NCBI GenBank assembly: GCA_031264885.1
Contig: JAISDM010000081.1
Coordinates: 1 to 37,603 of the forward strand
DNA length: 37,603 bases
Source of the DNA: Peptococcaceae bacterium
GTDB taxonomy: Bacteria; Bacillota; Peptococcia; DRI-13; UBA5745
Reading direction: 5' to 3'
The notes below the pieces were generated by a model. That model was not told the DNA's origin and did no database searches. It was given only the letters and a program-made list of their open reading frames with translations. Of this stretch, positions 5,225-21,529 are shown one piece after another; positions within the stretch are counted from its first letter, which is position 1; each line of letters opens with the position of its first letter. The position numbers and the translations under genes were made by a program.

Positions 5225-6517
5225 TCACCCATGTGAAAAGGTTTCCATCGCGCGGCCTTTGTATAGCTGGTCCGCGAAATCGGATTCGCCGGGGATGCCG
5301 CAGGCGTCGGCGCGGCAGTGGGCGCAGTGCAGGAACTGTTGGATGTACGGGGCGGCGGCGGCGCGCGCCGCTTCGATTTGTTCGCAGGTGGGCGCGGGGG
5401 TGTCCGCGAATTCATACTGCGGGAGCAGCGGGATGATGTTGTGCTTGGACGCTCCGGCCTCCGATACGGCGCGGGCTATGTCCGCGATGTGACCGTCGTT
5501 GATTCCGGGGATCAGCACCGTGTTGACTTTCACTGTGATTCCCGCCGCCGCGGCTTCGCGTATGCCTGTCAATTGACTGCGGATGAGTATGGTTCCGGCT
5601 TCTTCGCCGCTGACGGCCTTCCCGCCGGTGAGGACGCGGGATACGATTCGGGCTGTGATCTCCGGATCCACCGCGTTCACTGTAACCGTCAGTGTCAGGA
5701 CGCCCACGCCGCGCAGGGCCTCCGCCTTCCCCGGCAGGGCCAGGCCGTTGGTGCTGACGCATTTAATCAGCGTGGGGTAGGATTTGTGGACCAAATGGAA
5801 GGTTTCCATCGCGTGGGGCGACGCGAACGCGTCTCCCGGCCCGGCGATGCCTACCACCGAGAGATCCGGGCATAGCTCCAGCGCCTGCCGGACGGTCTCC
5901 ACGGCATCTTTTGGGGCAAGGATTCCGGACGATACCCCCGGGCGGTTTTCCGTTGGATTGCAGCTTCTGACGCAGAACCGGCACTGTATGTTGCAGGCCG
6001 CGCTGACGGGCAGATGCAGCCGGGCCTTTCGCCTGTTCAGGTGATCGGAGAAGCAGGGATGGGAACGGATATCTGTGACGTTTGAATGGGCAGCCGCGGC
6101 ATTCGAACGGATATCGCCGGCGTTAGAACGGCCGCCGGTGGTACTAGGGCGGGCGTCGGCGCCGGCGGCGTTTGCCCGTCTCCTTGTTTTTTTTAGAAAA
6201 GCCGCGTATCCGTCCAGCAGATCCGCCACAAGGCCGCCGCGCTCCACGACCAATATATTCCTCAGATTCAGTTCCCGCCGCGCGAAATTCCCGATCCGCA
6301 TGGCGATCACCGTTTGGCAGTCCTCGATCAGTTTGAGGGTCTCCGCGAAGGAGACGGCGTTGTGACCGCCTCCTTCGCAGATGGGCGTGTTCTCACGTCT
6401 TTCGACGATTTGCCAGGTATAAGAATCCTCATCGACGTCCGCGATGACGAACTCCGGGCTGCGCCCGAAATGTACGGACACCATCGTGCCGAATTCCGCC
6501 GCTAACGCCACACGCAT
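5225..6517 (-). CDS. NifB-like radical-SAM metallocluster maturase with an N-terminal NifX/NifB-C-type (dinitrogenase FeMo-cofactor-binding) domain
   Basis: The N-terminal ~110 aa (VHFGRSPEFVIADV...IAMRIGNFARREL) resemble the NifX/NafY/NifB-C fold family. Next comes the NifB hallmark HPCFSDHLNRRKARLHLPVSAACNIQCRFCVRS (CxxxCxxC). The C-terminus carries HCAHCRADACG. I chose the ATG at 6517 (AGGAG 8 nt upstream) over the GTG at 6526. Confidence 0.8.
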   Translation of the reverse strand: MRVALAAEFGTMVSVHFGRSPEFVIADVDEDSYTWQIVERRENTPICEGGGHNAVSFAETLKLIEDCQTVIAMRIGNFARRELNLRNILVVERGGLVADLLDGYAAFLKKTRRRANAAGADARPSTTGGRSNAGDIRSNAAAAHSNVTDIRSHPCFSDHLNRRKARLHLPVSAACNIQCRFCVRSCNPTENRPGVSSGILAPKDAVETVRQALELCPDLSVVGIAGPGDAFASPHAMETFHLVHKSYPTLIKCVSTNGLALPGKAEALRGVGVLTLTVTVNAVDPEITARIVSRVLTGGKAVSGEEAGTILIRSQLTGIREAAAAGITVKVNTVLIPGINDGHIADIARAVSEAGASKHNIIPLLPQYEFADTPAPTCEQIEAARAAAAPYIQQFLHCAHCRADACGIPGESDFADQLYKGRAMETFSHG

Positions 6518-6556
6518 AATATTCACTCCTTTGATGTTTCGGCGAGTCCTTAACCC

Positions 6557-7438
6557 TTATATGGCCATAGCCTCGCCGCGCACGTCTCCGCTTTCGATGG
6601 CCAGGATCTGATCCGACCATTCCGCCGCCCAGGCGCGTAAATCCTGGAGGCTCAGGGGATTGGGCGTCTTGGACTCCGTATGGCCGCCGACGCGTTCGGC
6701 CAGCTGCCTGTAGACCTTCGCCTGAGCGGAATCCGGCTGCGCCTCAATGGTGGTTTTGCCGTTCAGCTCGCTTTGGGTCACCGTAATGGAACGCGGGATA
6801 TACTGCATGACCTGAGTATCCGTGCGCGCCGCGAAATCGTCGATGATCGCCTTCTGATAAGTGGAATCCGGAGCCACCGAATTGGCGATGACGCCGCCCA
6901 GAAGCGCGCCGCCTGAGTTTGAGTATTTCTGGATGCCTTTGAACAGGTTGTTCGCGGCGTAAATCGCCATGAAATCCGAGGACGACACGGTGAACACGTG
7001 CTGGGCTATGCCCTCGCGGATGGGTACCGCGAAGCCGCCGCACACCACGTCCCCCAGTACGTCGTAAATCACATAGTCCAAATCCAGTTCCTCAAAGATT
7101 TTTTGCTGCTTCAAAAGCTGCACAGCCGTGATGATGCCCCGGCCCGCGCAGCCCACGCCCGGGGCGGGACCGCCCGCCTCCACGCAGTAGATGCCGTTAT
7201 AGCCGGTAAAAATCGCCTCGTGGGCGTTGAACTTGCCCTTGTCGCGCAGCAGCTCCAGCACCGTCGGGATGTAACTGCCGTCCCGCAGGGTGTTGGTGGA
7301 GTCCGCCTTGGGGTCGCAGCCGAATTGCATCACCTTATAGCCCATATCCGATAGGGCGGCGCTCAGGTTGGACGTGGTGGTGGATTTGCCGATTCCTCCT
7401 TTGCCGTAGATCGCGATTTGCTTGATTTCTTTTGCCAT
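6557..7438 (-). CDS. NifH-family Fe protein (nitrogenase-like reductase component, ATPase)
   Basis: 293 aa. Walker [17 protein letters not shown]. The [4Fe-4S] ligand motifs GVGCAGRGI and [18 protein letters not shown] are present. GCDPKADST is present. RBS GGAGGA lies upstream. Confidence 0.9.
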
Positions 7439-7468
7439 GTGTTTATCCTCCGGTTCCTTTGTTTGATT

Positions 7469-9058
7469 TTAAACGGACATTTCCGCGGTTTTGTCCACGA
7501 TGTAGTGGTCGTAGTCTTTTTGGTACCACTCGTCCGCATAGGGCAATTCAATGTTCCGGCTGAGGTTCTTCGAGTAATTCCGGTTGGCCAGGGTGCGGTC
7601 GATGCGCCGGGCCAGTTCGTAGGCGCCCTTATACCCGAAAAATGTGAAACGCTGTGAAAACAGGGCGATGGAAGGAACGCCCAGCTTATTCATCCAGATG
7701 CCCACCCCCGGATGGGAGATGGCGATGTCGGGCTCCAGTTTTTTCACCATATTGACCAATTCCGAACTCTGATTGGAGATCGCGGTGGGAACGTCGCCTA
7801 ATTTATCCTCGATTTCCTGGAAGAGGGCATTCCCGTAGGTGTCATAATTGAAGTTCCGCATGCCCACCACCTTCATGCCGATTTCATCCGCCAGAAGCGC
7901 CGCCGTTCCCACGCGCATGTAGCCGCCGCCGATGATGACCTTCTTGCCTTTGACCCGCTCCTTGATGGGTTCGAGGGCCTCTTTCAGCTTCCGCTCTTCT
8001 TTGTCCAAAATCGCTTCCGCCTCTTTTTCGAGCCCGAAGAATTGGGCGATTTCCATGACGAACTGCTTGGTGGAGCTGCTGCCCACGGGAATGGTGGGCA
8101 ATATATACGGCATGTCGAACCGCCGCTTCAGATATTCCAGGAAGTACAGATCATGCACATGGCACATGGCCACGTTCAGCGCGGCTTCCGTGATCATCCG
8201 CCAATCGTCCGGATGACTGAATTCGACAAAGAATCTCACGTTGAGCCCTATGGCCTCCAGCAGCCTGCGCATCTCCGCCTCGTCCTGTGCGCCGATGGAA
8301 ACCGCGTTGTACAGATTGACCGTGTGATTCTTGCGGTATTTGTATTCCGCCACTTTCAGATCATAGTCCTTGTCGTTCTCATCGATGGGCGTATAATCCA
8401 CGTAGGGGATCGGCTCGAAAGCAAATCCGGCGCGCTGTATGCCGTGATAAACCACATCATAAGCCGATGAAAAAACCCTCGCCTTGAATCCGGGACAGTG
8501 GAGGGGCACCAGGGGCGCGGTGACCTCCGAACGCAAATCGTCCAGCACGCCGTCTATGTCGTCCCCTATGATGGAGGGGGTGCATGTCATCAGCACGAAA
8601 ATCGCGCTGGGGCGGAATCTCTTGTCGGCCTCCAGAATACACCGCCGCAGTTTGTCCTCACCGCCGTTGATGACCTCGGATTCGGAGAGATTCGTGCTGA
8701 ACCAGCGCGCGTTGGACATCTGTTTGCCGCGCTGGGCGCCGTAAAGCCGGATCGTGAAGTCCATGGTGTGGCTCTGGGAACCGCAGCCGATGGGTCCGTG
8801 CATGATAACAACGGAATCTTTCACCGAGAAACCGATCAAGGTCGCCACGCCCATCTGACAGAAGGTGCTCTGCGCGAATGTGCGCTCGCAGTTGGCGAGG
8901 CAGCCCGCGCAGGCGTTGTCAACCATATCGTCGATATGGCCGCCGTAAGAATGCCCCGTGCGCCGGGTGATCTCCCTTTTTTCGGGAAATTTGGTATCAA
9001 AGTTGATCTCAAGGATCCGGGTGTCTCTGCCGGTTTTTTTATCGTTTGATTCTGTCAT
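7469..9058 (-). CDS. Nitrogenase component-1 alpha-like subunit (NifD/NifE-like)
   Basis: 529 aa. D/E-type motifs: FCQMG, MHGPIGCG, LSESEVINGGEDKL, MTCTPSIIGDDI, LHCPGFKA and NVAMCHVHD. An extra N-terminal CAGCLANC motif is present. Confidence 0.8.
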   Translation of the reverse strand: MTESNDKKTGRDTRILEINFDTKFPEKREITRRTGHSYGGHIDDMVDNACAGCLANCERTFAQSTFCQMGVATLIGFSVKDSVVIMHGPIGCGSQSHTMDFTIRLYGAQRGKQMSNARWFSTNLSESEVINGGEDKLRRCILEADKRFRPSAIFVLMTCTPSIIGDDIDGVLDDLRSEVTAPLVPLHCPGFKARVFSSAYDVVYHGIQRAGFAFEPIPYVDYTPIDENDKDYDLKVAEYKYRKNHTVNLYNAVSIGAQDEAEMRRLLEAIGLNVRFFVEFSHPDDWRMITEAALNVAMCHVHDLYFLEYLKRRFDMPYILPTIPVGSSSTKQFVMEIAQFFGLEKEAEAILDKEERKLKEALEPIKERVKGKKVIIGGGYMRVGTAALLADEIGMKVVGMRNFNYDTYGNALFQEIEDKLGDVPTAISNQSSELVNMVKKLEPDIAISHPGVGIWMNKLGVPSIALFSQRFTFFGYKGAYELARRIDRTLANRNYSKNLSRNIELPYADEWYQKDYDHYIVDKTAEMSV

Positions 9059-9062
9059 TTTT

Positions 9063-10409
9063 TTATCTCCCCGCTAACTGTGTGCCGATCAGGTCTTCCA
9101 GCAGATTCAATCCGCCGCGAAAACCCGCGTAGCCTTTTGAAATGATAATTCGGTTGATGATGGGATAGCTGACCGACAGGAAGTTTCCTTTCAAAACCTC
9201 CGCCAGCCGGCGTTCGATGGTGCTGCCCAGGACGAAGGCCGGCGATATGGTGGGATAGTATTCGTCGGCCAGGAACTGCGGCGTGTTCTGCTCAATGTAT
9301 TGTTGGATCTTGAATGTGTCCGTCTCAAACACCAAATCGGGCCGCGTCTCAAATTCGATCTCGCCGAAGGCGCTCCGTATCGCCGCTTCCTGATCCTCAT
9401 CCAGGTCGTCCGTGATAAAAATGTGCGTCGGTATCCATCCGATCTCGTTGTCCAAGTACCTCGCGTAAGGCAGCGCCTGGGTGGCGTTCGCGACGACGAC
9501 GGCGTAATTCTGGAAATCCGTGTCGGCGATGACGTCCGTGGCCCGGTCTATGAAGCTGTAATAATTCTTGATTTCCGCGGCCAGCAATGGATCGACCACG
9601 TTTTTGCTGATCTCAAGCCTGTCGGCGATGAGCCGCGCGAAATTCTCCGTCGCCTTTGCGCCGATGGGCAGATCCGTCACAAGATAATCGATATCGTGGC
9701 TTTCTTTAATGGTCTTTGCGGCTTCCACGCCGTAAACCCGGGAAAGTATAATATTCAGCGAAGCCTCGCCGGCTTTCAGAAGGTTCTCCTGGGTTTGATC
9801 GCTGGTGACGAAGGTGTTGACCTCGATTCCCAATAAGTTCAAAATCCGCTTGAGTTCGGCCAAGTCGCCGCGGAAAAACGGGTCGTAGGCGGGAACCAGG
9901 CCGAGAAGGTTCACCGCTTTCAGGTTTTTTTTCGTTGAAATAGGGATATACTGCAAGAACAATTCTTCAATGAGACGACCGTATCCGTAATAGGAATTCC
10001 CTTTGAACCCGCCGGATTCCAAAAAAATCACCGGTTTGGGCAGCGGCCGCAGGGAATCGACGACGGCCTTGGCGTCGTCTCCGATGATGTCGGTCATACA
10101 TGCCGTGGAAACAACGAATAGGTCGCCTTGCATCACCTCAAAAACGCCCTTGATCTCTTCGCGCAGTTTTTCCTCTCCGCCGAAGATGACCTCGGATTCG
10201 GAAATGTTTGTGCTTGGCATACCGCCGCTGCCGGCATAGCCGGTACCGTAGTACCCGCCCAGCAAGATGCCTTGGGCGAGGGAGCCTCCGCAGCCCTGCG
10301 CTCCGTGAATGATCGGCACCGTCCTGGGCAAAGCGCCTGTGGTGGCGAGCACGCCGCCCAGCATGCAGGAAAAACGGGGCCGCTCAATGGGTTTGTCACA
10401 TATTGCCAT
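9063..10409 (-). CDS. Nitrogenase component-1 beta-like subunit (NifK/NifN-like)
   Basis: 448 aa. K-type motifs: FSCMLGG, IHGAQGCG, ISESEVIFGGEEKL and STACMTDIIGDD. The stop lies 4 nt before the D-like start. Confidence 0.8.
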   Translation of the reverse strand: MAICDKPIERPRFSCMLGGVLATTGALPRTVPIIHGAQGCGGSLAQGILLGGYYGTGYAGSGGMPSTNISESEVIFGGEEKLREEIKGVFEVMQGDLFVVSTACMTDIIGDDAKAVVDSLRPLPKPVIFLESGGFKGNSYYGYGRLIEELFLQYIPISTKKNLKAVNLLGLVPAYDPFFRGDLAELKRILNLLGIEVNTFVTSDQTQENLLKAGEASLNIILSRVYGVEAAKTIKESHDIDYLVTDLPIGAKATENFARLIADRLEISKNVVDPLLAAEIKNYYSFIDRATDVIADTDFQNYAVVVANATQALPYARYLDNEIGWIPTHIFITDDLDEDQEAAIRSAFGEIEFETRPDLVFETDTFKIQQYIEQNTPQFLADEYYPTISPAFVLGSTIERRLAEVLKGNFLSVSYPIINRIIISKGYAGFRGGLNLLEDLIGTQLAGR

Positions 10410-10429
10410 AAAAGATCAGTCTCCTCTCG

Positions 10430-10552
10430 AACGGGATGGATTCCGGGACAAGCCCGGAATGACAGGATGATGGGGTGACGGGATGGAATGACGGGGCGAG
10501 TCTGGCCGCAGTCTGACCCGGAATGACGGAATGATGGAATGACGGGATGGAT
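10430..10552. repeat. Intra-operon repeat spacer with reiterated GGAATGAC / ACGGGATGGA motifs and a TTCCGGG-N5-CCCGGAA hairpin
   Basis: GGAATGAC occurs at 10456, 10485, 10520 and 10536, with GGAATGAT at 10528. ACGGGATGGA occurs at 10431, 10478 and 10542. The hairpin spans 10441-10459. The spacer lies between the cysK stop (10553) and the K-like start (10409). Confidence 0.85.
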
Positions 10553-11485
10553 TTATTCCGGGAAGAGCGCGGTGGATAAATAGCGCTCCCCTGTATCCGG
10601 GAGAATCACCACGATGTTTTGCCCCGCGTATTCCTTCCGCGCGGCGATCTTCGTGGCCGCGAACAGCGCCGCGCCGGAAGAAATGCCCACCAGGAGCCCT
10701 TCGGAGCGCGCGGCCTCTCTGGAAACCTCGAAGGCTTCCTGGTTTTTCACTCGAAAAATTTCATCCACATATTTGCGGCGGAACACTTTGGGAATAAATC
10801 CGGCGCCGATCCCTTGAATCGCGTGGGAACCGGACGGTTCTCCCGACAGCACGGAAGAATCGTAGGGTTCGACGGCGACGACGTGAATGGCGGGATTGCC
10901 TTTTTTCAGCGCCTCCCCGACGCCGGTGACCGTTCCGCCTGTGCCGACGCCGGATATGAAAACGGCCAGGTTTCCGCCGGTGTCCTCCAGTATTTCGGCC
11001 GCCGTGGTGGTCCGATGGATGGCGGGATTCACCGGATTTTCAAATTGCTGCGGTATGAAGGAGTTTTTGATTCGCGCGCTCAGTTCCTCCGCTTTGCGGA
11101 TCGCGCCTCTCATCCCGTCCGCGCCCGGGGTGAGAACCAGTTCGGCGCCCAGCGCTTTCAAAAGCCGCCTCCTTTCCAAGCTCATGGTCTCCGGCATGAC
11201 GAGAATGATTTTGTATCCCTTGGCCGCCGCCACAAACGCGAGCCCGATTCCCGTATTGCCGCTGGTCGGCTCGATGATCGTCGTTTCGCTGTCGATCCGG
11301 CCTTGCTTCTCTCCGTCTTCGACCATGGCGAGGGCGATGCGGTCTTTCACACTGCCGAGGGGGTTGAAATACTCCAATTTCGCGAGGATTTCGCCGGACA
11401 GGTTTTTGCCTGCCGAATATCGGTTCAAATGTAAGAGTGGCGTTTTGCCGATCAATTCGGTCAAGCTTTCCGCGATTTTTGACAT
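10553..11485 (-). CDS. cysK: Cysteine synthase / O-acetylserine sulfhydrylase family PLP enzyme (CysK/CysM type)
   Basis: LIGKTPLL, the PLP-lysine motif [11 protein letters not shown], the [10 protein letters not shown] loop and [10 protein letters not shown] are present. I chose the ATG at 11485 (AAGGAAGGGA 7 nt upstream) over the GTG at 11506. Confidence 0.85.
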
Positions 11486-11545
11486 TCGGATTTCCCTTCC
11501 TTTCACATTTTGTTTCAGAGACTTGTGTGGTCTTAGGCGGTGTTC

Positions 11546-11572
11546 CTTAGGACTTGTTTAACGAGTCCTAAG
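11546..11572 (-). other. Intercistronic 9-bp perfect hairpin (CTTAGGACT-N9-AGTCCTAAG) straddling the permease stop codon
   Basis: Positions 11546-11554 pair with 11564-11572. The permease TAG occupies 11570-11568 inside the stem. No U-tract follows on the minus strand. Confidence 0.5.
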
Positions 11573-12395
11573 CCGTTCCGGACTCGTCCCGCCAGCGGAA
11601 GCTGCGTTTTTCCACCGATTCCAGCACGAAGTTGATCGCGGTGCCGAATATGGCCATGACCACGATATAAGCGTACATTTCCGGGATTTTGAAGTTGGCC
11701 TGATAAAAGAACATGGCGTATCCGAGACCGCTGTTGGCGCCCATCATCTCCGCCGCGATGAGGATCAAAATGGAGAAGGTGGCGGACATGCGCACGCCGG
11801 TGAAGATGAACGGCAGGGCGGCCGGCAGTACCACGGAGCCAAACAGCCTGAGGGATCCCGTTCCCATAGCTCTGGCCGCTTTGACAAGCTGCGGGTCCAC
11901 GCTTCTTACGCCGGCGATGGTATTCAGCAGCGTGGTCCACAGCGCGCCCCACATAATGACGATGATCTTGGACGTTTCCCCGATGCCGAAGAACATCACG
12001 AACACGGGGAGCAGCGCCAGCGTGGGCATGTTGCGGAAGACCTGCAATAATGGATTGACCAGATTCCCGAAGCCCTTGAACCAGCCGATGGCAAGCCCGA
12101 GGGGGATGGCCACCGCGAGGCCCAGAAGGAATCCGAAGAAGGAACGCGTCAGGCTGATCGCGATGTTTATCCATAATTTGCCGCCGGCGGCTTCCCGAAC
12201 CAGCGCGAAAAAAACCCTGGATACGGGAGGGAAGAAGGCCGGCGTCGAGACCAACTCCAGGCGGGCGGCGAGTTCCCACAGGGCGGCGAATATAAAAATC
12301 GCGGCGGTGCTGGTGAAGATTTTTTTGAGCGCCGCGGCGGAAGCGCTTTGTTTGCCGGCCTGTTCAATGATAACGATATCTTTGTTTCTTTTCAT
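11568..12395 (-). CDS. ABC transporter permease, NitT/TauT (sulfonate/taurine/nitrate) family
   Basis: 275 aa from the ATG at 12395 (MKRNKDIVI...). It has multiple hydrophobic helices and a BPD-type EAA-like loop (AARAMGTGSLRLFGSVVLPAALP). The upstream part of the ORF-track ORF is Arg/Pro-rich non-coding read-through. Confidence 0.8.
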   Translation of the reverse strand: MKRNKDIVIIEQAGKQSASAAALKKIFTSTAAIFIFAALWELAARLELVSTPAFFPPVSRVFFALVREAAGGKLWINIAISLTRSFFGFLLGLAVAIPLGLAIGWFKGFGNLVNPLLQVFRNMPTLALLPVFVMFFGIGETSKIIVIMWGALWTTLLNTIAGVRSVDPQLVKAARAMGTGSLRLFGSVVLPAALPFIFTGVRMSATFSILILIAAEMMGANSGLGYAMFFYQANFKIPEMYAYIVVMAIFGTAINFVLESVEKRSFRWRDESGTA

Positions 12396-12441
12396 CTTAT
12401 CCTGCCTGTTGTTTGCTCGTATTAGGCGCCGCGGCGAATCC

Positions 12442-13332
12442 TTACAGCACTGCGGAGGGCGTGATTTCGTCCGCGAGGCTTCGGGGGGCGCCTTCCGGCC
12501 CGGAGCCGGTCTCCGGCGATTCTGTGTCATGCAGCAATTCCCATATCCGGTGTACGATGACGCCGTAATCGGCGGAGGCGCGCGCGTCGGCGTTAAACCG
12601 GGGGCGCGGCAGACGGATATCAACGATGTCTTTGATGCGCCCCGGGCGCGGTGTCATCACGACGACCCTGTCGGCCAGGAGTACCGCCTCCTCAATGCTG
12701 TGCGTGACGAAGATCACGGTTTTTTTTGTTTTGCCCCAGATCTTCAGAAGCTCATCCTGGAGGGTTTCTCTCGTCTGGGCGTCCACAGCGGCAAAGGGTT
12801 CGTCCATCAGAAGCACTTTAGGATCATAAGCCAGGGACCGGGCGATGGCGACCCGCTGCCGCATACCGCCCGACAGCTCGTTGGGATAGCGTTCCTCGAA
12901 GCCGTTCAGATCCACCAGGTCGATGTATGTCCGCGCGATCTCGGTTCGTTCTTTCTTGGGAATCCGCTTGACTTCAAGCCCGTACTCCACGTTGCGCAGC
13001 ACGGTGCGCCATGGAAAAAGAGCGTAGCCCTGCATAATAAAGCCTCTGTCCAGATTCGGCCCGGCGACTTCGCGGCCGTCGATGGTGATGCTTCCGCCCT
13101 TGGATTTGGTCAGCCCCGCGATAATATCCAACAGTGTGGATTTGCCGCATCCCGAAGGCCCGACGATGGAGACGAAGGCGCCGTCTTCTATGGAAAGGCT
13201 GAAACTCTCCAGGGCGACAAACTCTTCAAGCTGTTTCTTCCCCGGATTTCTTATATAATAGACTTGCTTCAGATTGTTGAGGATAATCTTCGCGTTACCG
13301 GCGCTTCCCAAAGCCGCTTCCATCAATGTCAT
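12442..13332 (-). CDS. ABC transporter ATP-binding protein, NitT/TauT family
   Basis: Walker A GPSGCGKSTLL, signature LSGGMRQRVAIARSL, Walker B LLMDEPFAAVD. The start is ambiguous. The ATG at 13332 overlaps the binding-protein stop (TAATG). The ATG at 13323 sits 11 nt from GGGAGG. Confidence 0.8.
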   Translation of the reverse strand: MTLMEAALGSAGNAKIILNNLKQVYYIRNPGKKQLEEFVALESFSLSIEDGAFVSIVGPSGCGKSTLLDIIAGLTKSKGGSITIDGREVAGPNLDRGFIMQGYALFPWRTVLRNVEYGLEVKRIPKKERTEIARTYIDLVDLNGFEERYPNELSGGMRQRVAIARSLAYDPKVLLMDEPFAAVDAQTRETLQDELLKIWGKTKKTVIFVTHSIEEAVLLADRVVVMTPRPGRIKDIVDIRLPRPRFNADARASADYGVIVHRIWELLHDTESPETGSGPEGAPRSLADEITPSAVL

Positions 13333-14414
13333 TACCTCCCGATTTCCGCGTCGGAGGCGGGCGGGTCGTTCGGCACGAATTGGTTGGTGTAACTCTCTTC
13401 GGGCGCAATGTCGCCAGGCGCCCAATAGCCCAATTCCTCGGACAGATCGAACCATAACTGTCCCCATTCCGGACGAATGTTTTTTTCCTGGCAATAGGAG
13501 TTGGAGCTGACCTCATCCGGTTCCAATCCCAGGTATTCCGCGCCTACCACCCTTGAATAGTCCGGGTTGGCTTCCATAAAAATCCTGGCCCGGTATGTGG
13601 CGTTGACGAAGCCCTGCACAATATCCGGATGTTCTTCGATAAAGGCGTCGCTGAACCCGCGCACAGCCAGGCCGCCTGCCGGCGTACCGACGACATCGTA
13701 GCTTTTGGCCGCCATGCGAACCCCTCCGGCCGCCAGGGCCACGCCGGCAAAGGGCGTATGAGAAGTTGTGGCGTCGATCTGTCCGTTGACGAGGGCCTGC
13801 TCAATCTGGCCGGCCTGGGGCATGACGACGTATTCCACCGATGCGGGATCGAGGCCTCTTTCGGATAAATACTTCGTGATAAATCCGTCAGTACAGACGG
13901 CCAGACCGCTAATCCCAACCTTCTTGCCGGCAAAGTCCTCGATGGATTGGATATCGCTGTCTTCCCGCACCAAGTATGTGATATGGGGATTGTCGGGATC
14001 ATCCACGAATCCGGGCGCCACAGCCAACGGACTCAGTCCCGCCAGCCGGGCCATCGCCACCTCCGTCAGATGCCCCTGAGTAAAAACGTCGATATCGCCT
14101 TGCTCCAGCGCCTGAAACTGTGTGATGCCCTGACCCAGCGTGCCGATATAGTCGATTTGGATGCCCTCATCCTCGAAGAACCCCAGTTTGTCGGCGATGA
14201 TGGTTTCACTGAAGGTGGTTTGGGTCACCGCGCGCAAGGTAAAAAGTTCACTGCCGCCGGTTCCGGCGCTGCCGGCGCCTGAATCGCCGTTCCCGTTCGC
14301 CGCCGCGGCGCCGGAACCCGAACCGCCGCAGCCCGCCGCCGCCAAAACAAACAGCAAGGTCACCGCAGCCGTTAATAATCTCTTTGGACGAATCATTGAT
14401 TTAGAATATTTCAT
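13332..14414 (-). CDS. Lipoprotein substrate-binding protein, NMT1/SsuA/TauA-like (NitT/TauT family)
   Basis: Lipobox LAAAGC follows a hydrophobic signal, then a Gly/Ser/Ala linker. The fold-family assignment rests on gene context and on length and pattern. It is the first gene of the operon. Confidence 0.7.
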   Translation of the reverse strand: MKYSKSMIRPKRLLTAAVTLLFVLAAAGCGGSGSGAAAANGNGDSGAGSAGTGGSELFTLRAVTQTTFSETIIADKLGFFEDEGIQIDYIGTLGQGITQFQALEQGDIDVFTQGHLTEVAMARLAGLSPLAVAPGFVDDPDNPHITYLVREDSDIQSIEDFAGKKVGISGLAVCTDGFITKYLSERGLDPASVEYVVMPQAGQIEQALVNGQIDATTSHTPFAGVALAAGGVRMAAKSYDVVGTPAGGLAVRGFSDAFIEEHPDIVQGFVNATYRARIFMEANPDYSRVVGAEYLGLEPDEVSSNSYCQEKNIRPEWGQLWFDLSEELGYWAPGDIAPEESYTNQFVPNDPPASDAEIGR

Positions 14415-14601
14415 AATGAGCGACTCCTTTCATAAGGACTTGTTGAATGATTCCCAAGCCCTGTACAAATAGATACAGTAAAGCCGCCGGATTCAACAGT
14501 CGCCCATACCGCCCTTGCCGCACATCGCGAGATATTTCGACGTTCTCAACATAACCACGACCCCCAGTAAATTTATAATACATATAAAATTAGTATGATT
14601 T

Positions 14602-14630
14602 ATTATAATACCGGCATTTTGATTTGTCAA
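14602..14630 (-). promoter_or_regulatory. Consensus sigma-A promoter for the ABC-cysK-nitrogenase-like operon (TTGACA-17-TATAAT)
   Basis: The minus strand reads TTGACA (14630-14625), a 17-nt spacer, then TATAAT (14607-14602). This predicts a leader of about 180 nt before the ATG at 14414. Confidence 0.65.
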
Positions 14631-14769
14631 GCGTCAAAATTGCGGGGCGTCGTTCTGTTCCGTGTCCATATATGGTGTTGACGATGCGATTTTTGACGTT
14701 TTCGGATGGTCTGGCCCGTCTTTGACGGACGCGAATTTCCGGGCTGTGAAAAAATCCTTGAAAAAAGCA

Positions 14770-14797
14770 TTGACTTTTTATTTACATATGATATAGT
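14770..14797 (+). promoter_or_regulatory. Sigma-A promoter for the patB-Mo-enzyme-peptide operon (TTGACT-16-TGaTATAGT, extended -10)
   Basis: TTGACT at 14770-14775, TG at 14789-14790, TATAGT at 14792-14797. RBS GGGAGG at 14862-14867 precedes the ATG at 14875. Confidence 0.55.
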
Positions 14798-14874
14798 ATT
14801 ATTATATAACATATCAAACATATATATAATATGGTTAAAACTGTACAGACGTTTTAATATAGGGAGGCGAGAAA

Positions 14875-16053
14875 ATGCGCGATGATCAAAATAAAAGCGA
14901 CCGATATGATTTTGACGCCGGACTTGATCGCCGCGGAACCAACTGCGTGAAATGGGATACCATTGAAGAAGGATATATTCCGATGTCTATCGCGGATATG
15001 GATTTTGGGACGCCGGCGCCGATTATAGAAGCGATCCGGCGCAGACTGGATCACCCCGCGTTCGGGTATGGCATCCGGAATACGGAGATGGTTGACGCGG
15101 TGATCGCGTGGTTTGGGCGTACATACGACTTTGAGCTGGACCGTTCCTGGATTGTTCCGCTGACCGGCATTTATTCCGCGCTCGCTTTCTTCTCCAGTCT
15201 GACGGACGGCGATGTGCTGACCGCGACGCCTAACTATCCGCCGATCCTCAGAGGGCCGGAACGTGTCGACCGCGCTTGCGTCTTTTCTCCTATGAAGAAG
15301 GCGGCGGAGACAAGGCTGGCGCGTTATGAGCTGGATTTCGAGGATCTTGAGCGTAAAGCCGCGGCGGATGTGGGCATGTATTCCATGTGCAGTCCGCATA
15401 ATCCCATCGGCCGGGTGTATACAAAAGAAGAACTGGAACGTTTGAGCGATTTTGCGCGCAAGCGGAAACTGGTTGTTCTGTCAGATGAAATACATAACGA
15501 ACTGATTTATGATCATCCGCATACGCCGTATTTGACGGTTGAGGGCGGGCTTGAATCCTCGGTGACGCTGATTTCCGCCGGGAAAACATGTAATATTCCC
15601 GGAATCCCCGCCGCGCTGGCCATTGTTCCGGACGAGGCGTTACGCGGGCGGGTCATCGCCGCCGCGTCCGGATTTGGCGGCGCCGGCGCGCTGAACACAG
15701 AGGCGCTGCGCGCGGCGTACGCGGAATGCGACGATTGGAAAAAGGCGCTTGTTTCCTATTTAAAAGAGAACCGAGATTATTTAGAAACCGAATTTCTGAG
15801 GCGCTTCCCAAAAATCCGGCTGACCCATACGGAAGGAACTTACTTGCAATGGGTGGATTTCAGCGGCTATGGCATTTCAAACGCCGCTCAATGGTTATTG
15901 GATCATCCAAAAATCGTGGCTCACGGCGGCAAAATGTTCGGCGGCGCGGAAAGCGAGGCGCGGATTAATTTTGGGTGTCCGCGTTCGCTCATTAAAGAAG
16001 CGCTGGACAGAATGGAGACGTCGCTGACGAGTTCTGAATTGAACGCGGTGTGA
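14875..16053 (+). CDS. patB: PatB/MalY-family PLP-dependent C-S lyase (cystathionine beta-lyase type, aminotransferase class I/II fold)
   Basis: The N-terminus YDFDAGLDRRGTNCVKWD is typical of MalY/PatB. The PLP-lysine motif is ISAGKTCNIPG. 392 aa. Confidence 0.8.
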   Translation: MRDDQNKSDRYDFDAGLDRRGTNCVKWDTIEEGYIPMSIADMDFGTPAPIIEAIRRRLDHPAFGYGIRNTEMVDAVIAWFGRTYDFELDRSWIVPLTGIYSALAFFSSLTDGDVLTATPNYPPILRGPERVDRACVFSPMKKAAETRLARYELDFEDLERKAAADVGMYSMCSPHNPIGRVYTKEELERLSDFARKRKLVVLSDEIHNELIYDHPHTPYLTVEGGLESSVTLISAGKTCNIPGIPAALAIVPDEALRGRVIAAASGFGGAGALNTEALRAAYAECDDWKKALVSYLKENRDYLETEFLRRFPKIRLTHTEGTYLQWVDFSGYGISNAAQWLLDHPKIVAHGGKMFGGAESEARINFGCPRSLIKEALDRMETSLTSSELNAV

Positions 16054-16081
16054 AAAAAGAAAAACCGGGAGGAGACTGACA

Positions 16082-18322
16082 ATGAGCGCGACAGATCAGC
16101 GTAATACGGCGGAGTTCCAGACATATAAGACCGGCGTGGTCGTGCCGGGTATCTGCGGAATTTGCGCGTCCAGCTGCCCGGTGGATCTGACCATACAGAA
16201 TCAGAAGATTGTGCGTGTGGAAGCGTCCAAAATACAGGGCGGAAGCGGGTATCTCTGCGCCAAAGGCGCGGCGGGGCGCGGCTATGTCTATCGCGAGGAT
16301 CGGCTCAAGACTCCGCTGAGACGCGTTGGAGCGCGTGGCGGGAACGCCTTTGAGCCCATCACATGGGACGAGGCTTACGCTGAGATCGCGGCAAAAACAG
16401 GCGCCATAAAATCAGCTTACGGCCCGGACAGTGTGGCTTTTTACACGGGTTATTCCAAATGGTACCGGCCTTTGCTGCACCGGCTGGCGCACAGCTTTGG
16501 CACGCTCAATTACGGCACCGAGTCCTCTAGCTGTCACCAGGCGTCTGTCATGGCTAACCTGGTCAGCGCGGGCGTCTATTGCCGGCCGGATGTGGCGAAC
16601 GCGGAGCTTTTGATCGCCTGGGGCGTAAATCCCTTCCACAGTGGGAATTTTTCCGGTGAGATGATGGAAATTCAGAAGGAAAAAGGGCTGCGCGTGCTGT
16701 GTGTGGATCCGCGGGTGACGCCGTATACGCAGCAGTACGCTGATATTCATCTGCGCCCGAAGCCTGGAACGGACGGCGCGCTGGCTCATTTTTTCGCGAA
16801 ATATTTGATCCGCGCGAAAAAAACCGACGCTGAATTTATTGAGAGGTACGTTCACGGTTATCCGCAATACGCGGAATATGTCGAAGCTTTTGACATTGCT
16901 TCCGTGTCCCGCGTTACGGGCATATCCGAGAAGGAACTGCGGGCCGCCGCTCAGCTTATCGCCAGACACAGCCGGCGCTTTACGATACAGGTGAGCCAGG
17001 CCGCGATCACGCATCATATCAACGGGTTTCAATCCTATCGCGCGATCATCGCCTTATGCGCCATTACGGGAAATGTGGATCGGGAAGGCGGGCTGATTCC
17101 GATGGAGTATCCCGGGAAGGACGACCGGCTGAACAAGCCGCGCCTTTTAACAGAGGAATTTATTCAGCAAACCCGGCCCGATCACGCCAAACCGAAGATC
17201 GGTTCCGAGCGGTTCCCCCTTTGGTCGGAACTGATCGATGAATTTCAGGCGATGGATCTTTGGCGCAATATTTTGGAAGGAACACCCTATCCCATTAAGG
17301 CGGTCATCGCCTTTGGAATGAACGTTCACATGTTTCCGGGAAACGCCAAACTCTTTGAAGCCTTGAGCGCGTTGGACTTCTATGTGGATGTGGATATTTT
17401 TGACACGGATTCGGCAAAATACGCGGATATCATTCTGCCCGCGTGTTCTCCCTATGAGCGCACCGAGCTTATCGGCGCCATGGGCGGCGGCATACGTTAT
17501 TCCCAGCCCGCGATTCCTCCGCTGTACGAATCCCGTTCGGACGCGGACATCATCAGTCAGTTGGCGGCGGCGTTCGATTTGGACGATCCTTTGCTGAGAA
17601 GAGGCTATGACGCTTGCAGCCGTTCTATGCTGCGGGAAATCGGACTTACAATGGACGATTTGAAGGAATCTCCCGCCGCGCGGCGGATTCCGGGTAAACT
17701 GCCATATTTCACGGGTCATTGCCTGCGGAACGGGTTTGATACGCCGACCGGCAAGTACGAGTTGTATTCGGAACGTATCGCGAAATATCAGGATCGGTAT
17801 CCGTATGATCCGCTGCCGGTATTTGTGCCGCCGATTGAGGCGGAGGACGAAGGGGATGAACGGTTTCCGCTGACGCTGACAGTGGGCGGCAGGCTGCCTC
17901 ACGCGTTCCACTCCCGTTTCCACAATGTACGCTGGGCAAGAGCGCTGCGACCGGACGCAGCCGCGGATATTCATCCGGGCGACGCCGGAAGAATGGGGAT
18001 CCAACAGGGCGATTCTATCGCCATAGCCACAGCAAACGGGGAGATTACCGCCAAAGCCAATCTGACATGGATGGTTCCGGAAGGGTCTGTCTTTATGTTC
18101 CAGGGTTATGTGGAGGCGGACGCCAACGCGATTCTGGGAGCGGAACATCTGGATCCTTATTCCGGATTCCCGGGATACCGTTCCAACAAGTGCGCGGTCA
18201 GAAAGATAAACGCCGTGGCGCCGGTCAAAATTACAAAGGCCGCGAAACCGGTCAAGTTGGCCAAAGCGGCCGGAATCGCAAAGGAGCCGCGAAAGGAATT
18301 GGAGGTGAGCGTCCGAAAATGA
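16082..18322 (+). CDS. Molybdopterin (Mo/W-bisPGD, DMSO-reductase superfamily) oxidoreductase catalytic subunit, cytoplasmic
   Basis: 746 aa. The N-terminal FS0 cluster motif is CGICASSCPV...YLCAKG. There is no twin-arginine or signal sequence. The domain order is typical of the family. The C-terminus is a Lys/Ala-rich tail. Confidence 0.8.
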   Translation: MSATDQRNTAEFQTYKTGVVVPGICGICASSCPVDLTIQNQKIVRVEASKIQGGSGYLCAKGAAGRGYVYREDRLKTPLRRVGARGGNAFEPITWDEAYAEIAAKTGAIKSAYGPDSVAFYTGYSKWYRPLLHRLAHSFGTLNYGTESSSCHQASVMANLVSAGVYCRPDVANAELLIAWGVNPFHSGNFSGEMMEIQKEKGLRVLCVDPRVTPYTQQYADIHLRPKPGTDGALAHFFAKYLIRAKKTDAEFIERYVHGYPQYAEYVEAFDIASVSRVTGISEKELRAAAQLIARHSRRFTIQVSQAAITHHINGFQSYRAIIALCAITGNVDREGGLIPMEYPGKDDRLNKPRLLTEEFIQQTRPDHAKPKIGSERFPLWSELIDEFQAMDLWRNILEGTPYPIKAVIAFGMNVHMFPGNAKLFEALSALDFYVDVDIFDTDSAKYADIILPACSPYERTELIGAMGGGIRYSQPAIPPLYESRSDADIISQLAAAFDLDDPLLRRGYDACSRSMLREIGLTMDDLKESPAARRIPGKLPYFTGHCLRNGFDTPTGKYELYSERIAKYQDRYPYDPLPVFVPPIEAEDEGDERFPLTLTVGGRLPHAFHSRFHNVRWARALRPDAAADIHPGDAGRMGIQQGDSIAIATANGEITAKANLTWMVPEGSVFMFQGYVEADANAILGAEHLDPYSGFPGYRSNKCAVRKINAVAPVKITKAAKPVKLAKAAGIAKEPRKELEVSVRK

Positions 18323-18828
18323 GTGAAAGAGTCATAGCGTTTAATTTTCATCCTGAATTGTGCGTTGGCTGCGGGCGATGTATCACCACTTGTCTGGATG
18401 TCAATGATATTGACCTGGACAAGTTTTTGCCGCTTCGAACATTGACTGTCAAGGAGTCCATACGTGACGGCGGTAAGATCCGGATTGAATACTACACCGC
18501 GGCGTGTATGCACTGTGAAGATATGCCCTGTGCCAAAGCGTGCCCTCAAGGCTGTTACCGAAAAGACGCGCGGACGGGACTTGTGATTCTTGATAATTCG
18601 GAATGCGCCGGATGCGGCAAATGCGCCGCCGTCTGCCCTTTTTCCGCCATTAAGTTTTGTGAGCGCAAGGCGGTCAAGTGTACGGGCTGTATTGACCGGG
18701 TGCGGGAGAACTTACTCCCGGCTTGTGTCGCGTGCTGCTCCAGAAAGGCCATTACCGTGGACGAACGGAATCTGGTACTGCGGAAAGGCCGCAGACAATT
18801 GAAACAGGCTTTAAGAGCCAGGGCTTAG
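18319..18828 (+). CDS. 4Fe-4S ferredoxin-type electron-transfer subunit (DmsB/PsrB-like)
   Basis: The ATG at 18319 overlaps the upstream TGA (ATGA), and GGAGGTGAG lies at 18301. Four Cys groups are present: CVGCGRCITTC, CMHCEDMPCAKAC, CAGCGKCAAVC and CTGC...CVACC. The ORF-track start at 18067 lies inside the previous gene. Confidence 0.85.
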   Translation: MSERVIAFNFHPELCVGCGRCITTCLDVNDIDLDKFLPLRTLTVKESIRDGGKIRIEYYTAACMHCEDMPCAKACPQGCYRKDARTGLVILDNSECAGCGKCAAVCPFSAIKFCERKAVKCTGCIDRVRENLLPACVACCSRKAITVDERNLVLRKGRRQLKQALRARA

Positions 18829-18862
18829 GAGAACAAGAAAAAACCAGGAAGGATTTGTAAAT

Positions 18863-20563
18863 ATGAAAAAAATATTTTATAATAGGAAATCATTATCATT
18901 AACGCTTATAACCTTTTTATTTTTCAGCCTTGCGGCTGCTTGCGGCGGAAGAGCCGCAGAACCGGCGGATTCTCAGGGAAGTACGGCGGCGTCGGGCGAA
19001 CCGGCGTCCGGCATAGACGAAGTTTCGGATAATGAAGAAGTGGTTTTGAATGTAAACGTAACGGCAGAACCCACCAGCTTTGACCCGAACGCGGGTATCG
19101 GAGACACGCTGATGTTTACGAACGGGCATTTATATGAAGCGGTGACACGCCTTGATGATAACGATAATCCCGTCCCCGGCATGGCTCTGGACTGGACGGT
19201 TTCCGACGACGGACTGACCTATGAGTTCACCATTCGCGGCGACAACGGCTGGTCGAATGGGGCTAAAGCGACAGCCGCCGACTTTGAGTATGGCATAAAG
19301 CGTATTTTATCTCATCAGATCGGCGAAAATTGGGCGTTCCTTGTTTTTGATATTAAGAACGCGGCGGCCGCTTTTTCGGGTGATGTCCCTCTTGACGAAG
19401 TGGGGATTAAAGCCGACGGAAACAAGCTGACAATCACACTTGAGCATCCCGAAGCGTATTTCCCGAGATTATTGACATTCGCGCCTTATTTCGGCGTGAA
19501 TCAGGAGTTTGTGGAAAGCACAAATGGCAGATACGGAACGGAGGCGGCGTTAACCATTTCCAGCGGTCCGTATTATGTTGATTCCTGGGAGCATGATAAT
19601 CTGATCGTTCTCCGCAAAAATCCCTATTATTGGAACAAGGACAACATCAAAATCGATAAAATTAATATCTATGTCATCGGCGACGAAAATACGGCAATTA
19701 ATCTGTTCCAGACAGGCGAGCTGGACATCATTGATTTTTCAGGCGAGAAAAAAAATATAGTCGAGGCTAACGGCGGCAATGTTCAGACTTATCAGAACGG
19801 CAGAAGCGTGTACTTGCAGGCTAATTTAAGAAACGCTGTAAGCGGCAACAAGAAAATACGTCAGGCGATTTCCTCCGCGATTGACCGCGAGTTGTTCGTG
19901 ACGGGCGTTTTGAAAGACGCGTCATCGCCCGCGGAAGGCTTGGTTGCCGGAGGGATCGCGTCAGGCGTGCCAAGCAGAACGTTCCGCGATTTGACAGGCA
20001 AGACGCTCGTATATGATTATGACCCTGACAGGGCTCAGGCGTTATTCGGCGAAGGATTGGCGGAGCTGGGAATAACCGCGGCGGACATTGAGTTAAGATT
20101 GATCTCCCGCAATTCGGAACCTTATATGAAGGCGACGGCCGCTTTACAGGAAATGCTTCAGAATACCTTCGGCATTAAAATAAACGCCGAATCGCTGGAA
20201 TCGACCTCTTACACAGCGACGAGAAGCGACATGAATTATGATTTCTGTCTCGTGAGCTGGGGCGCGGATTGGGATGATCCTACGACATTCCTGTATGAAG
20301 GCGTTTTAGGCGATTATGTTAACCCGCAATATGCCGACAGTTCCGCTTATTTAAAAGCGCTTCACGATGCGGAAACGATCCGCGATCCGCTGGAGCGGGC
20401 CGAATCTCTCGCCGACGCGGAAAGAGCGATACTCGAGGATACCCCTTTGATTCCGATTTGGTCGGAAGCGAGATTCTACGCCGTCGCGGACAAAGTGAGA
20501 GGTACACACAGAAGGGCAATCGTACCATATCTTGATATTGTGAAAGCGGAAATAGTCAAATGA
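18863..20563 (+). CDS. ABC transporter substrate-binding lipoprotein, family 5 (peptide/nickel/glutathione type, OppA/DppA/GsiB-like)
   Basis: Lipobox LAAAC. 566 aa. Family-5 pattern (LDWTVSDDGLTYEFTIR, NPYYW). Confidence 0.85.
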   Translation: MKKIFYNRKSLSLTLITFLFFSLAAACGGRAAEPADSQGSTAASGEPASGIDEVSDNEEVVLNVNVTAEPTSFDPNAGIGDTLMFTNGHLYEAVTRLDDNDNPVPGMALDWTVSDDGLTYEFTIRGDNGWSNGAKATAADFEYGIKRILSHQIGENWAFLVFDIKNAAAAFSGDVPLDEVGIKADGNKLTITLEHPEAYFPRLLTFAPYFGVNQEFVESTNGRYGTEAALTISSGPYYVDSWEHDNLIVLRKNPYYWNKDNIKIDKINIYVIGDENTAINLFQTGELDIIDFSGEKKNIVEANGGNVQTYQNGRSVYLQANLRNAVSGNKKIRQAISSAIDRELFVTGVLKDASSPAEGLVAGGIASGVPSRTFRDLTGKTLVYDYDPDRAQALFGEGLAELGITAADIELRLISRNSEPYMKATAALQEMLQNTFGIKINAESLESTSYTATRSDMNYDFCLVSWGADWDDPTTFLYEGVLGDYVNPQYADSSAYLKALHDAETIRDPLERAESLADAERAILEDTPLIPIWSEARFYAVADKVRGTHRRAIVPYLDIVKAEIVK

Positions 20564-21528
20564 TGCTCAATTATGTCATAAGGCGTGTGGGGATTTCTCT
20601 GCTCACAATTTTTGTCATAATAACTGTGACGTTTTTCCTGATGTACATGCTGCCCGGCACGCCCTTCCTCGGCGACAGACCCTTGCCGGAGGCCGTAGTC
20701 GCCGCAGCGAACGCGAAATATGGTTTGGATAAGCCGATCGCGGAGCGTTACATCATATATTTGTCCAATATAATCCACGGGGATTTCGGAACCTCAACCG
20801 TATACACAAACAGGGATGTGACAAGCATTATCAAGACCGCTTTCCCCGTTTCCGCGAGTCTCGGAATACGCGCGTTAATTTTCGGAGTGACCGGAGGAAT
20901 ACTCTTAGGTATATACAGCGCGCTTCACCATAATAAATTAGGGGACAGCGTATCTACAGTAGTCGCCATTATCGGCGTATCAATACCGAGCTTTATTTTG
21001 GGGACGATGCTGCAATACGCTCTGGGCGTAAAAGTCAGCGGTCTTTTTAAAGATATTTTCAACACTGATTACCAGCTTTTTCCCTTAGCGCGGTGGGAAA
21101 GTTTCCGCTACACGCTCATTCCTACCTTTGTGTTGGGTTTGGGTTCGCTGGCGGGCGTCATGCGAATGATGCGTTCCTCCATGCTGGAGGTCGTAAATCA
21201 GGATTATATTAAAACAGCGAAGTCCAAAGGGCTGGGCGGAACCGCGATCACATGGCGGCATATGGCGCGCAACGCGATCATGCCCGTATACACTGTCGTC
21301 GGTACGATGACGGGTGTGATACTAACCGGCTCTTTTGTTATCGAAAACATTTTTAGTATTCCCGGACTCGGCAAGTATTTTGTCAATAGCGTCAGTTCCC
21401 GGGATTACCCGATGACAATAGGGCTTACCCTGTTTTTCGCGATTTTCATAGTTTTCGTCAATATGTTCATCGACTTGGGCTACGGTCTGATCGACCCCCG
21501 GATTCGCATAGCAAAGGGAGAAAAATAA
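20560..21528 (+). CDS. Peptide ABC transporter permease (OppB/DppB-like)
   Basis: The N-terminus MLNYVIRR and the EAA loop (YIKTAKSKGL) match the family. It overlaps the upstream stop (ATGA). Confidence 0.85.
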   Translation: MMLNYVIRRVGISLLTIFVIITVTFFLMYMLPGTPFLGDRPLPEAVVAAANAKYGLDKPIAERYIIYLSNIIHGDFGTSTVYTNRDVTSIIKTAFPVSASLGIRALIFGVTGGILLGIYSALHHNKLGDSVSTVVAIIGVSIPSFILGTMLQYALGVKVSGLFKDIFNTDYQLFPLARWESFRYTLIPTFVLGLGSLAGVMRMMRSSMLEVVNQDYIKTAKSKGLGGTAITWRHMARNAIMPVYTVVGTMTGVILTGSFVIENIFSIPGLGKYFVNSVSSRDYPMTIGLTLFFAIFIVFVNMFIDLGYGLIDPRIRIAKGEK

Positions 21529-21529
21529 T

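Follow-up and report, generated by a model that had tools for sequence, protein, structure and literature searches.

The window analysed here is a stretch of 37,603 nucleotides of contig JAISDM010000081.1 (positions 1 to 37,603 of the forward strand) from a Peptococcaceae bacterium, whose assembly (GCA_031264885.1) is a draft of 308 contigs, 96 % complete. Between positions 5225 and 10409 it carries four minus-strand genes, named here nflK, nflD, nflH and nflX-nflB, that encode a two-component reductase system of the nitrogenase-like (NFL) type together with a NifB-type maturase. Their order, K-D-H-B, is the subject of this work. The four genes are the following.

9063 to 10409, minus strand: nflK, beta-type subunit, 448 residues (PF00148, 1.7e-61; match to the MarK chain)
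7469 to 9058, minus strand: nflD, alpha-type subunit, 529 residues (PF00148, 6.5e-76; TIGR01862 alpha model, 1.6e-54; match to the MarD chain)
6557 to 7438, minus strand: nflH, MarH-type ATP-dependent Fe protein, 293 residues (Fer4_NifH; TIGR01287; 9fmg_D)
5225 to 6526, minus strand: nflX-nflB fusion, 433 residues (PF02579 at residues 14-107; PF04055 at residues 173-352; TIGR01290)

The coordinates of the open reading frames (ORFs) give K, D, H and XB as the order of transcription, with the NifB-like gene last, as the initial annotation had read it. The nflK product ends in QLAGR; the stop codon TAA at 9063-9065 is followed by AAAA and by the nflD ATG at 9058, which leaves the 4-nt spacer that had been reported, and the ribosome-binding site of nflD (GGAGA) is located within the final codons of nflK. 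The D-H and H-B spacers measure 30 nt apiece. The characterised nif, vnf and anf clusters and the mar cluster of Rhodospirillum rubrum were said to run H-D-K, which is correct as far as it could be checked.

Both large proteins contain the Pfam domain Oxidored_nitro (PF00148) and make up an adjacent alpha/beta pair of the nitrogenase component-1 superfamily. The translations contain every motif by which K and D had been told apart: the 448-residue protein has HGAQGC and TACMTDIIGDD, and the 529-residue protein has HGPIGC, TCTPSIIGDDI and HCPGFKA. Were the subunits nevertheless swapped, with the shorter protein as alpha and the longer as beta, the order would simply be the canonical D-K. The profile search proposed as a check on this point bears out one half of the assignment only: the 529-residue protein is alpha-type (NCBIfam N2-ase-I alpha 1.6e-54, NifE 1.8e-49, NifK 2e-8), and the 448-residue protein is ambiguous, with BchB at 3.7e-29 followed by near-equal NifE (4.8e-22), NifK (1.4e-21) and alpha (1.9e-21) matches that leave some room for a swap. 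Even so, the NifK match covers the full length and the alpha match residues 22-283 only. The identity of the subunits is settled because of the solved MarDK structures. The 448-residue protein matches 9d9u_C/9fmg with an E-value of 6.1e-66 over residues 7-445, against 8.5e-10 for the alpha chain of the same entries, while the 529-residue protein matches 9fmg_A/9d9u_A at about 5e-61 and the beta chain at 3.3e-18. These chains carry the database name "Nitrogenase" only, and chains A and C are taken to be MarD and MarK of R. rubrum because the published ligand numbers land exactly on cysteines and histidine in the alignments. In addition, the cofactor Cys/His pair lies in the 529-residue protein, and the D and K trees described below are congruent. 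The assignment of the 448-residue protein as beta/K-type and the 529-residue protein as alpha/D-type is thus well supported by alignment, in agreement with the initial annotation, and a swap is almost certainly wrong. Of note, several alpha-type NflD proteins are labelled "oxalate:formate antiporter" in public records (P0004, P0006-P0008, P0011, P0029, P0063), evidently an annotation error spread among metagenome-assembled genomes (MAGs) from termite guts.

The metal ligands published for the R. rubrum enzyme are Cys66, Cys91, Cys158, Cys270 and His429 of MarD and Cys32, Cys56 and Cys121 of MarK (PMC12552129). In the window, Cys67, Cys92 and Cys159 of NflD align with MarD Cys66/91/158, and Cys15, Cys40 and Cys104 of NflK align with the three MarK cysteines, so that all six P-cluster cysteines are kept, three in each subunit. 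The cofactor ligands are kept as well, Cys299 and His449 of NflD being the equivalents of MarD Cys270 and His429. NflD departs from MarD in two respects: Ser448 precedes the cofactor histidine where MarD has Arg428, and 28 residues are inserted between the third P-cluster cysteine and the cofactor cysteine.

The meaning of the gene order was approached through a comparison of loci of four kinds: (a) nine loci of 71-91 % identity from close relatives among species-representative genomes, eight of them in termite-gut MAGs; (b) loci from 400 genomes sampled within the window's phylum and from family relatives; (c) further paralogues in termite-gut MAGs; and (d) contigs encoding named homologues from a protein collection. 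ORFs were classed by phmmer score, the references being the D and K proteins of the window and MarD and MarK of R. rubrum. A tree of 58 Group-IV-type D proteins was rooted on VnfD/AnfD, and a scored neighbour was available for 57 of the D genes, with K before D in 26 and D before K in 31. The tree falls into two clades. Clade I holds 21 proteins, MarD included, all of them encoded in D-K order. Clade II (37 proteins, SH-aLRT 97) includes the window protein and contains neither R. rubrum MarD nor any sampled MarD-like protein. Within it, sub-lineage IIa is K-D in 9 of 9 cases, IIb is D-K in 9 of 9, and IIc, to which the window belongs, is K-D in 17 of 19. Three changes of order suffice on the D tree, against a mean of about 20 when the orders are shuffled, and no shuffle out of 200 needed so few. 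Nearly the same four groups come out of the K tree (4 order changes, for a minimum of 3), from which it follows that K and D have evolved as pairs.

The clades also differ in sequence signatures. Clade II proteins have Gly, Ser, Ala or Cys before the cofactor histidine and never Arg, and the distance from the third P-cluster cysteine to the cofactor cysteine is 127-150 residues in Clade II (140 in the window) and 110-117 in Clade I, the Clade II proteins having an insert of 20-30 residues. The window D scores 208 bits to MarD and 346-485 bits to members of its own clade at 39-44 % identity, while MarD-like proteins reach 365-622 bits to MarD. In two other loci, L055:8900-11766 and L056:6459-9395, both in the MarD clade, the P-cluster cysteines and the cofactor cysteine are kept and the cofactor histidine is replaced by Ala.

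As judged from these gene trees, K-before-D has been inherited within two sub-lineages of an NFL clade that lies outside the clade of MarD, and by elimination Clade II is likely to be the published sub-group IV-D or IV-E. The view that the K-D-H-B genes belong to an independent lineage and are not a recent transfer of a proteobacterial mar or isr cluster therefore stands in so far as it rests on the clade without MarD, on the conserved cofactor ligands, which ISR is reported to lack, and on the missing arginine. Order by itself is weak evidence of lineage, since it flips within the window's own sub-clade: the locus L008:1877-5802 (71 % identity) reads D-cysK-K, with D upstream, and is the single exception there. 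The idea of a distinct operon architecture fares less well. K-D is found in 26 of the 57 scored pairs, some of them from public genomes of cultured species and one a further pair from the window's own genome. Rather than a new architecture, it is the normal layout of a part of Group IV that is widespread and publicly sequenced but functionally uncharacterised. Nor is the predicted change in subunit stoichiometry and translational coupling borne out. Pairs abut or overlap in both orders (the median gap, on longest ORFs, is +14 nt in K-D pairs and -8 nt in D-K pairs), so that translational coupling is plausible in either order, and nothing suggests an altered stoichiometry.

The four genes appear to form the distal half of one eight-gene operon that would run from genes of an SsuABC-like importer through cysK to nflK, nflD, nflH and nflXB. 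Its remaining features are as follows.

14602 to 14630, minus strand: sigma-70-type promoter, TTGACA, 17 nt, TATAAT (12/12 consensus match)
13332 to 14414, minus strand: SsuA/NMT1-family substrate-binding lipoprotein of an ABC importer (TIGR01728 SsuA_fam 1.5e-28; PF09084 NMT1 4e-24)
12442 to 13494, minus strand: ABC transporter ATPase, sulfonate/taurine/nitrate type (SaoA 1.9e-76; taurine ABC ATPase 7e-72; PF00005)
11568 to 12623, minus strand: ABC transporter permease, SsuC/TauC-like (SaoP 3.6e-46; SsuC 4.8e-38; TauC 1.6e-37; PF00528)
10553 to 11506, minus strand: cysK, O-acetylserine sulfhydrylase, that is cysteine synthase A (TIGR01139 433 bits, above the cut-off of 351)
10410 to 10552, minus strand: cysK/nflK spacer of 143 nt with a short dispersed repeat, CGTCATTCC / GTCATTCCGGG (sequence reading)

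The coordinates of the ATPase and the permease are those of the longest ORFs, and the true starts are probably further downstream; the SaoA and taurine ATPase scores are both under the curated cut-offs. The promoter, identified by consensus match only, is the top site of a 10-kb scan and lies about 190 nt 5' of the first operon gene. Together with the 4-nt K/D gap and its ribosome-binding site, the common strand and the short gaps, it is taken as a sign of an operon. Rfam gave no match in the whole window at gathering thresholds and none at E<=1 in the leader (14380-14900), where no known riboswitch or T-box was seen, and in the cysK/nflK spacer it returned a chance lncRNA match only. The repeat in that spacer is a different matter: GTCATTCCGGG occurs in 318 copies in the genome where about 1.6 would be expected, and the element is therefore read as a dispersed intergenic element resembling repetitive extragenic palindromic (REP) sequences.

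The same intergenic region also serves a divergent plus-strand operon (14875-27027), which encodes a PatB-family C-S lyase and a cytoplasmic molybdopterin oxidoreductase of the PhsA/DmsA-like type whose Fe-S subunit resembles DmsB. Its other products are an Opp-type peptide importer and two peptidases, a leucyl aminopeptidase and an Xaa-Pro dipeptidase, and it may be the second arm of a sulfur-scavenging regulon. Because of these genes and of the importer and cysK on the other side, the neighbourhood is read as one of sulfur scavenging. No PII, amt or nifEN gene is found among the operon neighbours.

The K-D pair recurs in cultured and uncultured bacteria. It is found in Ruminococcus albus (X-cysK-K-D-ssuABC, 61 % D identity), in [Clostridium] polysaccharolyticum (MarD-MarK-lysR-K-D-ssuABC), in the complete genome of Gottschalkia acidurici 9a (ssuABC-K-D-B-X-H-MarD-MarK-metY), in Paenibacillus zanthoxyli (cysK-K-D) and in Clostridium sp. 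DJ247, as well as in a Treponema MAG (cysK-K-D) and an Adiutrix MAG (B-X-H-cysK-K-D). These uncharacterised clusters belong to the same Clade II, with D identities to the window of 40-69 %, or 83-91 % for termite MAGs, and in most of them an SsuABC-type transporter adjoins the pair. The arrangement ssuABC-cysK-K-D is seen at loci L003, L005, L009 and L066. A cysK gene stands directly 5' of nflK in the window and in no fewer than 10 further K-D loci, of which 9 belong to sub-lineage IIc. Of the 17 K-D loci of IIc, at least 10 show this arrangement, usually with an SsuABC-type importer alongside, and several of the remaining loci are truncated by contig ends. The cysK-K-D unit is thus the commonest one in IIc but not invariant. 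The pair of [C.] polysaccharolyticum follows lysR, with no cysK seen beside it, and in G. acidurici and Clostridium sp. DJ247 cysK is near the pair without being adjacent.

The other genes of the cluster are far less constant. K-D-H is restricted to the window and its nearest relatives (L001, L002, L005), and K-D-H-(X)B is seen in the window and L005. The 91 % relative L001 reads K-D-H-X with no radical-SAM gene nearby, an 83 % relative reads H-B-ssuABC-cysK-K-D-X, and the sister branch reads H-B-cysK-K-D. Other K-D clusters place H, B and X differently: H and B are absent within 9 kb of the pair in R. albus and the Treponema MAG, the Adiutrix MAG and GCA_026000815 have H, B and X upstream, and Gottschalkia has them downstream as B-X-H. 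The synteny comparison therefore goes against the full K-D-H-B string as a conserved trait, since it is not kept even in relatives of 83-91 %; the string is one local variant in which H, B and X are positionally fluid.

In the literature, no paper explicitly discussing the K-before-D order was found, nor any occurrence of nflKD or nfaKD. The Rhodopseudomonas palustris genes "marKD2" and "marHB2" were considered as a K-D precedent and not counted: the neighbours described fit a minus-strand X-B-H...D-K arrangement, and the names probably follow the order of locus tags only. As a separate lead, the gene-id order of the heliobacterial NflDK1-5 hints at mixed orders in one locus, strands not being given.

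The Fe protein and the maturase have affinities of their own. NflH scores 489.5 bits (2.8e-146) against MarH (9fmg_D) and at most 282 bits against any NifH; its TIGR01287 score of 398.2 bits is just over the cut-off of 394.35. NflXB consists of a NifX-like domain (14-107), a low-complexity Ala/Ser/Arg-rich linker of about 45 residues and a radical-SAM domain (173-352), and scores 291.7 bits with TIGR01290, under the cut-off of 343.65. The same fused architecture is present at L028, where the alignment extends over residues 4-433, and an N-terminal NifX fusion on B is common to only some of the uncharacterised K-D clusters. Elsewhere the X domain is a separate gene, located after H at L001 and after D at L066, with B upstream in the latter. 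The radical-SAM part of the window B is 63 % identical to the B of a same-family genome and 39-52 % identical to the B proteins of the nearest D relatives, which suggests a mosaic history.

K-D-H-B might instead be a recent private rearrangement or a mis-assembly. The fragmented draft would allow it; the REP-like repeat at the cysK/K junction occurs there in this genome only (in close relatives the junction measures 15-89 nt or overlaps, and the long spacer is absent); H and B are placed differently from the 83-91 % relatives; and the affinity of the radical-SAM domain points the same way. Against this, the K-D adjacency is found in 26 independently assembled loci, among them the complete genome of G. 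acidurici 9a and the R. albus and P. zanthoxyli isolates, K-D-H recurs at L001, L002 and L005, and K and D meet cleanly, with a ribosome-binding site and only 4 nt between them. A private origin of the order is accordingly very improbable.

The distribution of the pair is also uneven. No close copy was found in the window's own family relatives, where the best match is 43 %, while copies of 59-91 % are carried by MAGs labelled as several families of Bacillota and as Spirochaetota, Planctomycetota and Desulfobacterota. These labels are NCBI database names only; taken together with the lack of a close copy in the family, they fit a horizontal spread of the K-D pair in gut communities.

The source genome holds 12 Oxidored_nitro ORFs. 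It has no canonical nitrogenase, and none of the 12 ORFs scores as NifE/N. One NifB homologue and one MarH-type H are present in the whole genome, both of them in the window operon. On contig C84 (8635-15431; locus L070:636-7432) a single strand carries D'-K'-K''-D''-cysK with no H or B near. The D'K' pair is MarDK-like (365 bits to MarD, 388 bits to MarK), and K''D'' is the closest paralogue of the window pair in the genome, also in K-before-D order and in Clade IIa. From this inventory, the single H and B probably serve both C84 pairs as well, as has been proposed elsewhere where one organism has several D/K pairs (PMC9147875). Two more distant sets were observed. Contig C91 (6419-10010; L067:620-4211) encodes a 777-residue fusion of a CfbC/NifH-like ATPase (4-262) with an alpha-like Oxidored_nitro domain (358-720), followed by a 402-residue BchB-like partner, all scores being under the curated cut-offs. 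Contig C114 (17042-20320; L068) carries a third nitrogenase-family set, made of a CfbC-like H (259 residues) and two divergent Oxidored_nitro proteins (429 and 412 residues), which adjoins ABC transporter genes.

Among characterised systems, the closest to the window is MarBHDK of R. rubrum (Group IV-C; 9fmg, 9d9u), a methylthio-alkane reductase (MAR). The two share the two-component organisation, a MarH-type Fe protein, the six P-cluster cysteines, ligands of the Cys270/His429 type, a NifB-type maturase without NifEN and a context of sulfur acquisition. They differ in gene order, B-H-D-K in R. rubrum and K-D-H-B here, and in metabolic partner, since MAR couples to O-acetylhomoserine sulfhydrylase and the window enzyme to CysK and an SsuABC-like importer. 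One may ask whether the window encodes an ordinary Group IV-C MAR with shuffled genes that would release methanethiol from dimethyl sulfide (DMS), ethyl methyl sulfide (EMS) or methylthioethanol. The MarH-like score of NflH, the retention of every MarDK metal ligand and the maturase in its sulfur-metabolism context would all suit such an enzyme, and MAR enzymes have been reported in Clostridia (PMC13753814). NflD, however, is placed outside the MarD clade, has Ser448 where the Arg428-His429 pair has been proposed as the MAR hallmark (PMC12552129), and contains the 28-residue insert before the cofactor cysteine. Its partner is CysK, a separate MarDK-like pair exists on C84 in the same genome, and the non-IV-C groups tested in published screens had no MAR activity (PMC13753814). 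The window enzyme is thus unlikely to be an ordinary MAR.

A second point of reference is the isethionate reductase (ISR) IsrBHDK of Rhodobacter capsulatus (Group IV-F), likewise a nitrogenase-like enzyme, which is co-expressed with an SsuABC-type sulfonate importer in anaerobic sulfur assimilation (PMC11423573; PMC13474568) but is set apart by its published description. IsrD is reported to be without the Cys270/His429 ligands of MarD and to have divergent residues at the P-cluster cysteine positions (PMC13474568), whereas the window NflD has every one of those ligands and cysteines. Moreover, ISR is proposed to release sulfite, and no match to the NIR_SIR sulfite reductase domain (PF01077) was found in the window's genome by a search that was positive in 11 of 14 control genomes.

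NifHDK, VnfHDGK and AnfHDGK share with the window system the protein superfamily, the P-cluster, the ATP-dependent Fe protein and a NifB-derived cofactor. Canonical nitrogenases differ in gene order, in the sulfur context and in having NifEN, and the cofactor histidine of the window lies on a MAR-type loop. In the curated NCBIfam models, the best alpha score is 185 bits for a cut-off of 486 and the NifK score 77 bits for a cut-off of 427, so that neither these scores nor the NifEN content make a true nitrogenase of it. A cryptic dinitrogen-reducing enzyme, or an Nfa-like (Group IV-A) enzyme, has also to be considered for a termite-gut bacterium. The closest relatives are indeed termite-gut MAGs, the genome is without a canonical nitrogenase and NflH passes the nifH model cut-off. 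Yet sulfur genes make up the neighbourhood, from which PII, amt and nifEN are missing, D and K fall far under the nitrogenase cut-offs, and the cysteines do not fit. The NfaD pattern is Cys50/53/60/78/81/146/257, with spacings of 25/68/111 and extra cysteines at P1-3, P1+7 and P2+3 (PMC13474568). The window NflD has spacings of 25/67/140 and no cysteine at the three extra positions. A Clade I branch (L045/L052/L053) does fit the cysteine pattern of NfaD from Endomicrobium proavitum. An Nfa-like or nitrogen-fixing role for the window genes can hardly be credited.

Taken as a whole, the window is best explained, and in our judgement probably correctly so, as a sulfur-acquisition operon for a Group IV NFL two-component reductase that lies outside the MarD clade and has an inherited K-D order. 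Such a setting agrees with the general co-location of Group IV NFL genes with cysteine or methionine synthase genes (PMC13753814). In the mechanism proposed, electrons would pass in an ATP-driven manner from NflH to a P-type [8Fe-7S] cluster at the K/D interface and on to a cofactor on NflD. This cofactor would be an [Fe8S9C] L-type cluster held by Cys299 and His449, as in MarD, and NflX-NflB, as the sole genomic NifB homologue, would be its expected maker. The reaction would reductively split a C-S bond of an organosulfur substrate taken up through the SsuABC-like importer, and CysK would capture the sulfide or small thiol set free. Sulfide or a thiol is favoured over sulfite as product because the genome shows no NIR_SIR sulfite reductase.

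Several points weigh against this explanation. The CysK adjacency and the missing sulfite reductase are circumstantial, all the more so in a 96 %-complete draft of 308 contigs, and co-transcription is inferred from sequence only. For the sister relation to MarD there is a single solved-structure reference, and the trees are quick ones supported by SH-aLRT values only. The roots are partial VnfD/AnfD sequences copied from alignments, so that either K-D or D-K may be the ancestral order. Finally, the genome sample is biased to one GTDB phylum and to termite-gut MAGs.

A more specific proposal can be put forward tentatively, with slightly less than even confidence. The cysK-nflK-nflD module, marked by its K-before-D order, by the lack of an arginine beside the cofactor histidine and by the insert of 20-30 residues in D, would define a functionally distinct enzyme, neither MAR nor ISR, that strips imported organosulfur compounds to sulfide or to a thiol usable by CysK. 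It would act as a plug-in to a shared MarH-type reductase and NifB, and its spread in gut communities would have crossed the borders of phyla (Bacillota, Spirochaetota, Desulfobacterota).

The order of the two genes matters little in itself. It is, however, a cheap and phylogenetically stable marker, with three changes across 57 pairs, that separates the MAR branch, always D-K, from two large K-D branches, and in the window's branch cysK is usually found directly upstream. The cysK-nflK-nflD module thereby points to a target for functional work. The window offers a compact and self-contained eight-gene candidate for expression, in which a single consensus promoter precedes the importer genes, cysK and the genes for K, D, H and B, and Ruminococcus albus, Gottschalkia acidurici and Paenibacillus zanthoxyli are cultured native hosts that carry the same module. 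The K-D branches, which are reported to be without MAR activity, may bear on anaerobic sulfur cycling in guts and soils through a chemistry of their own.

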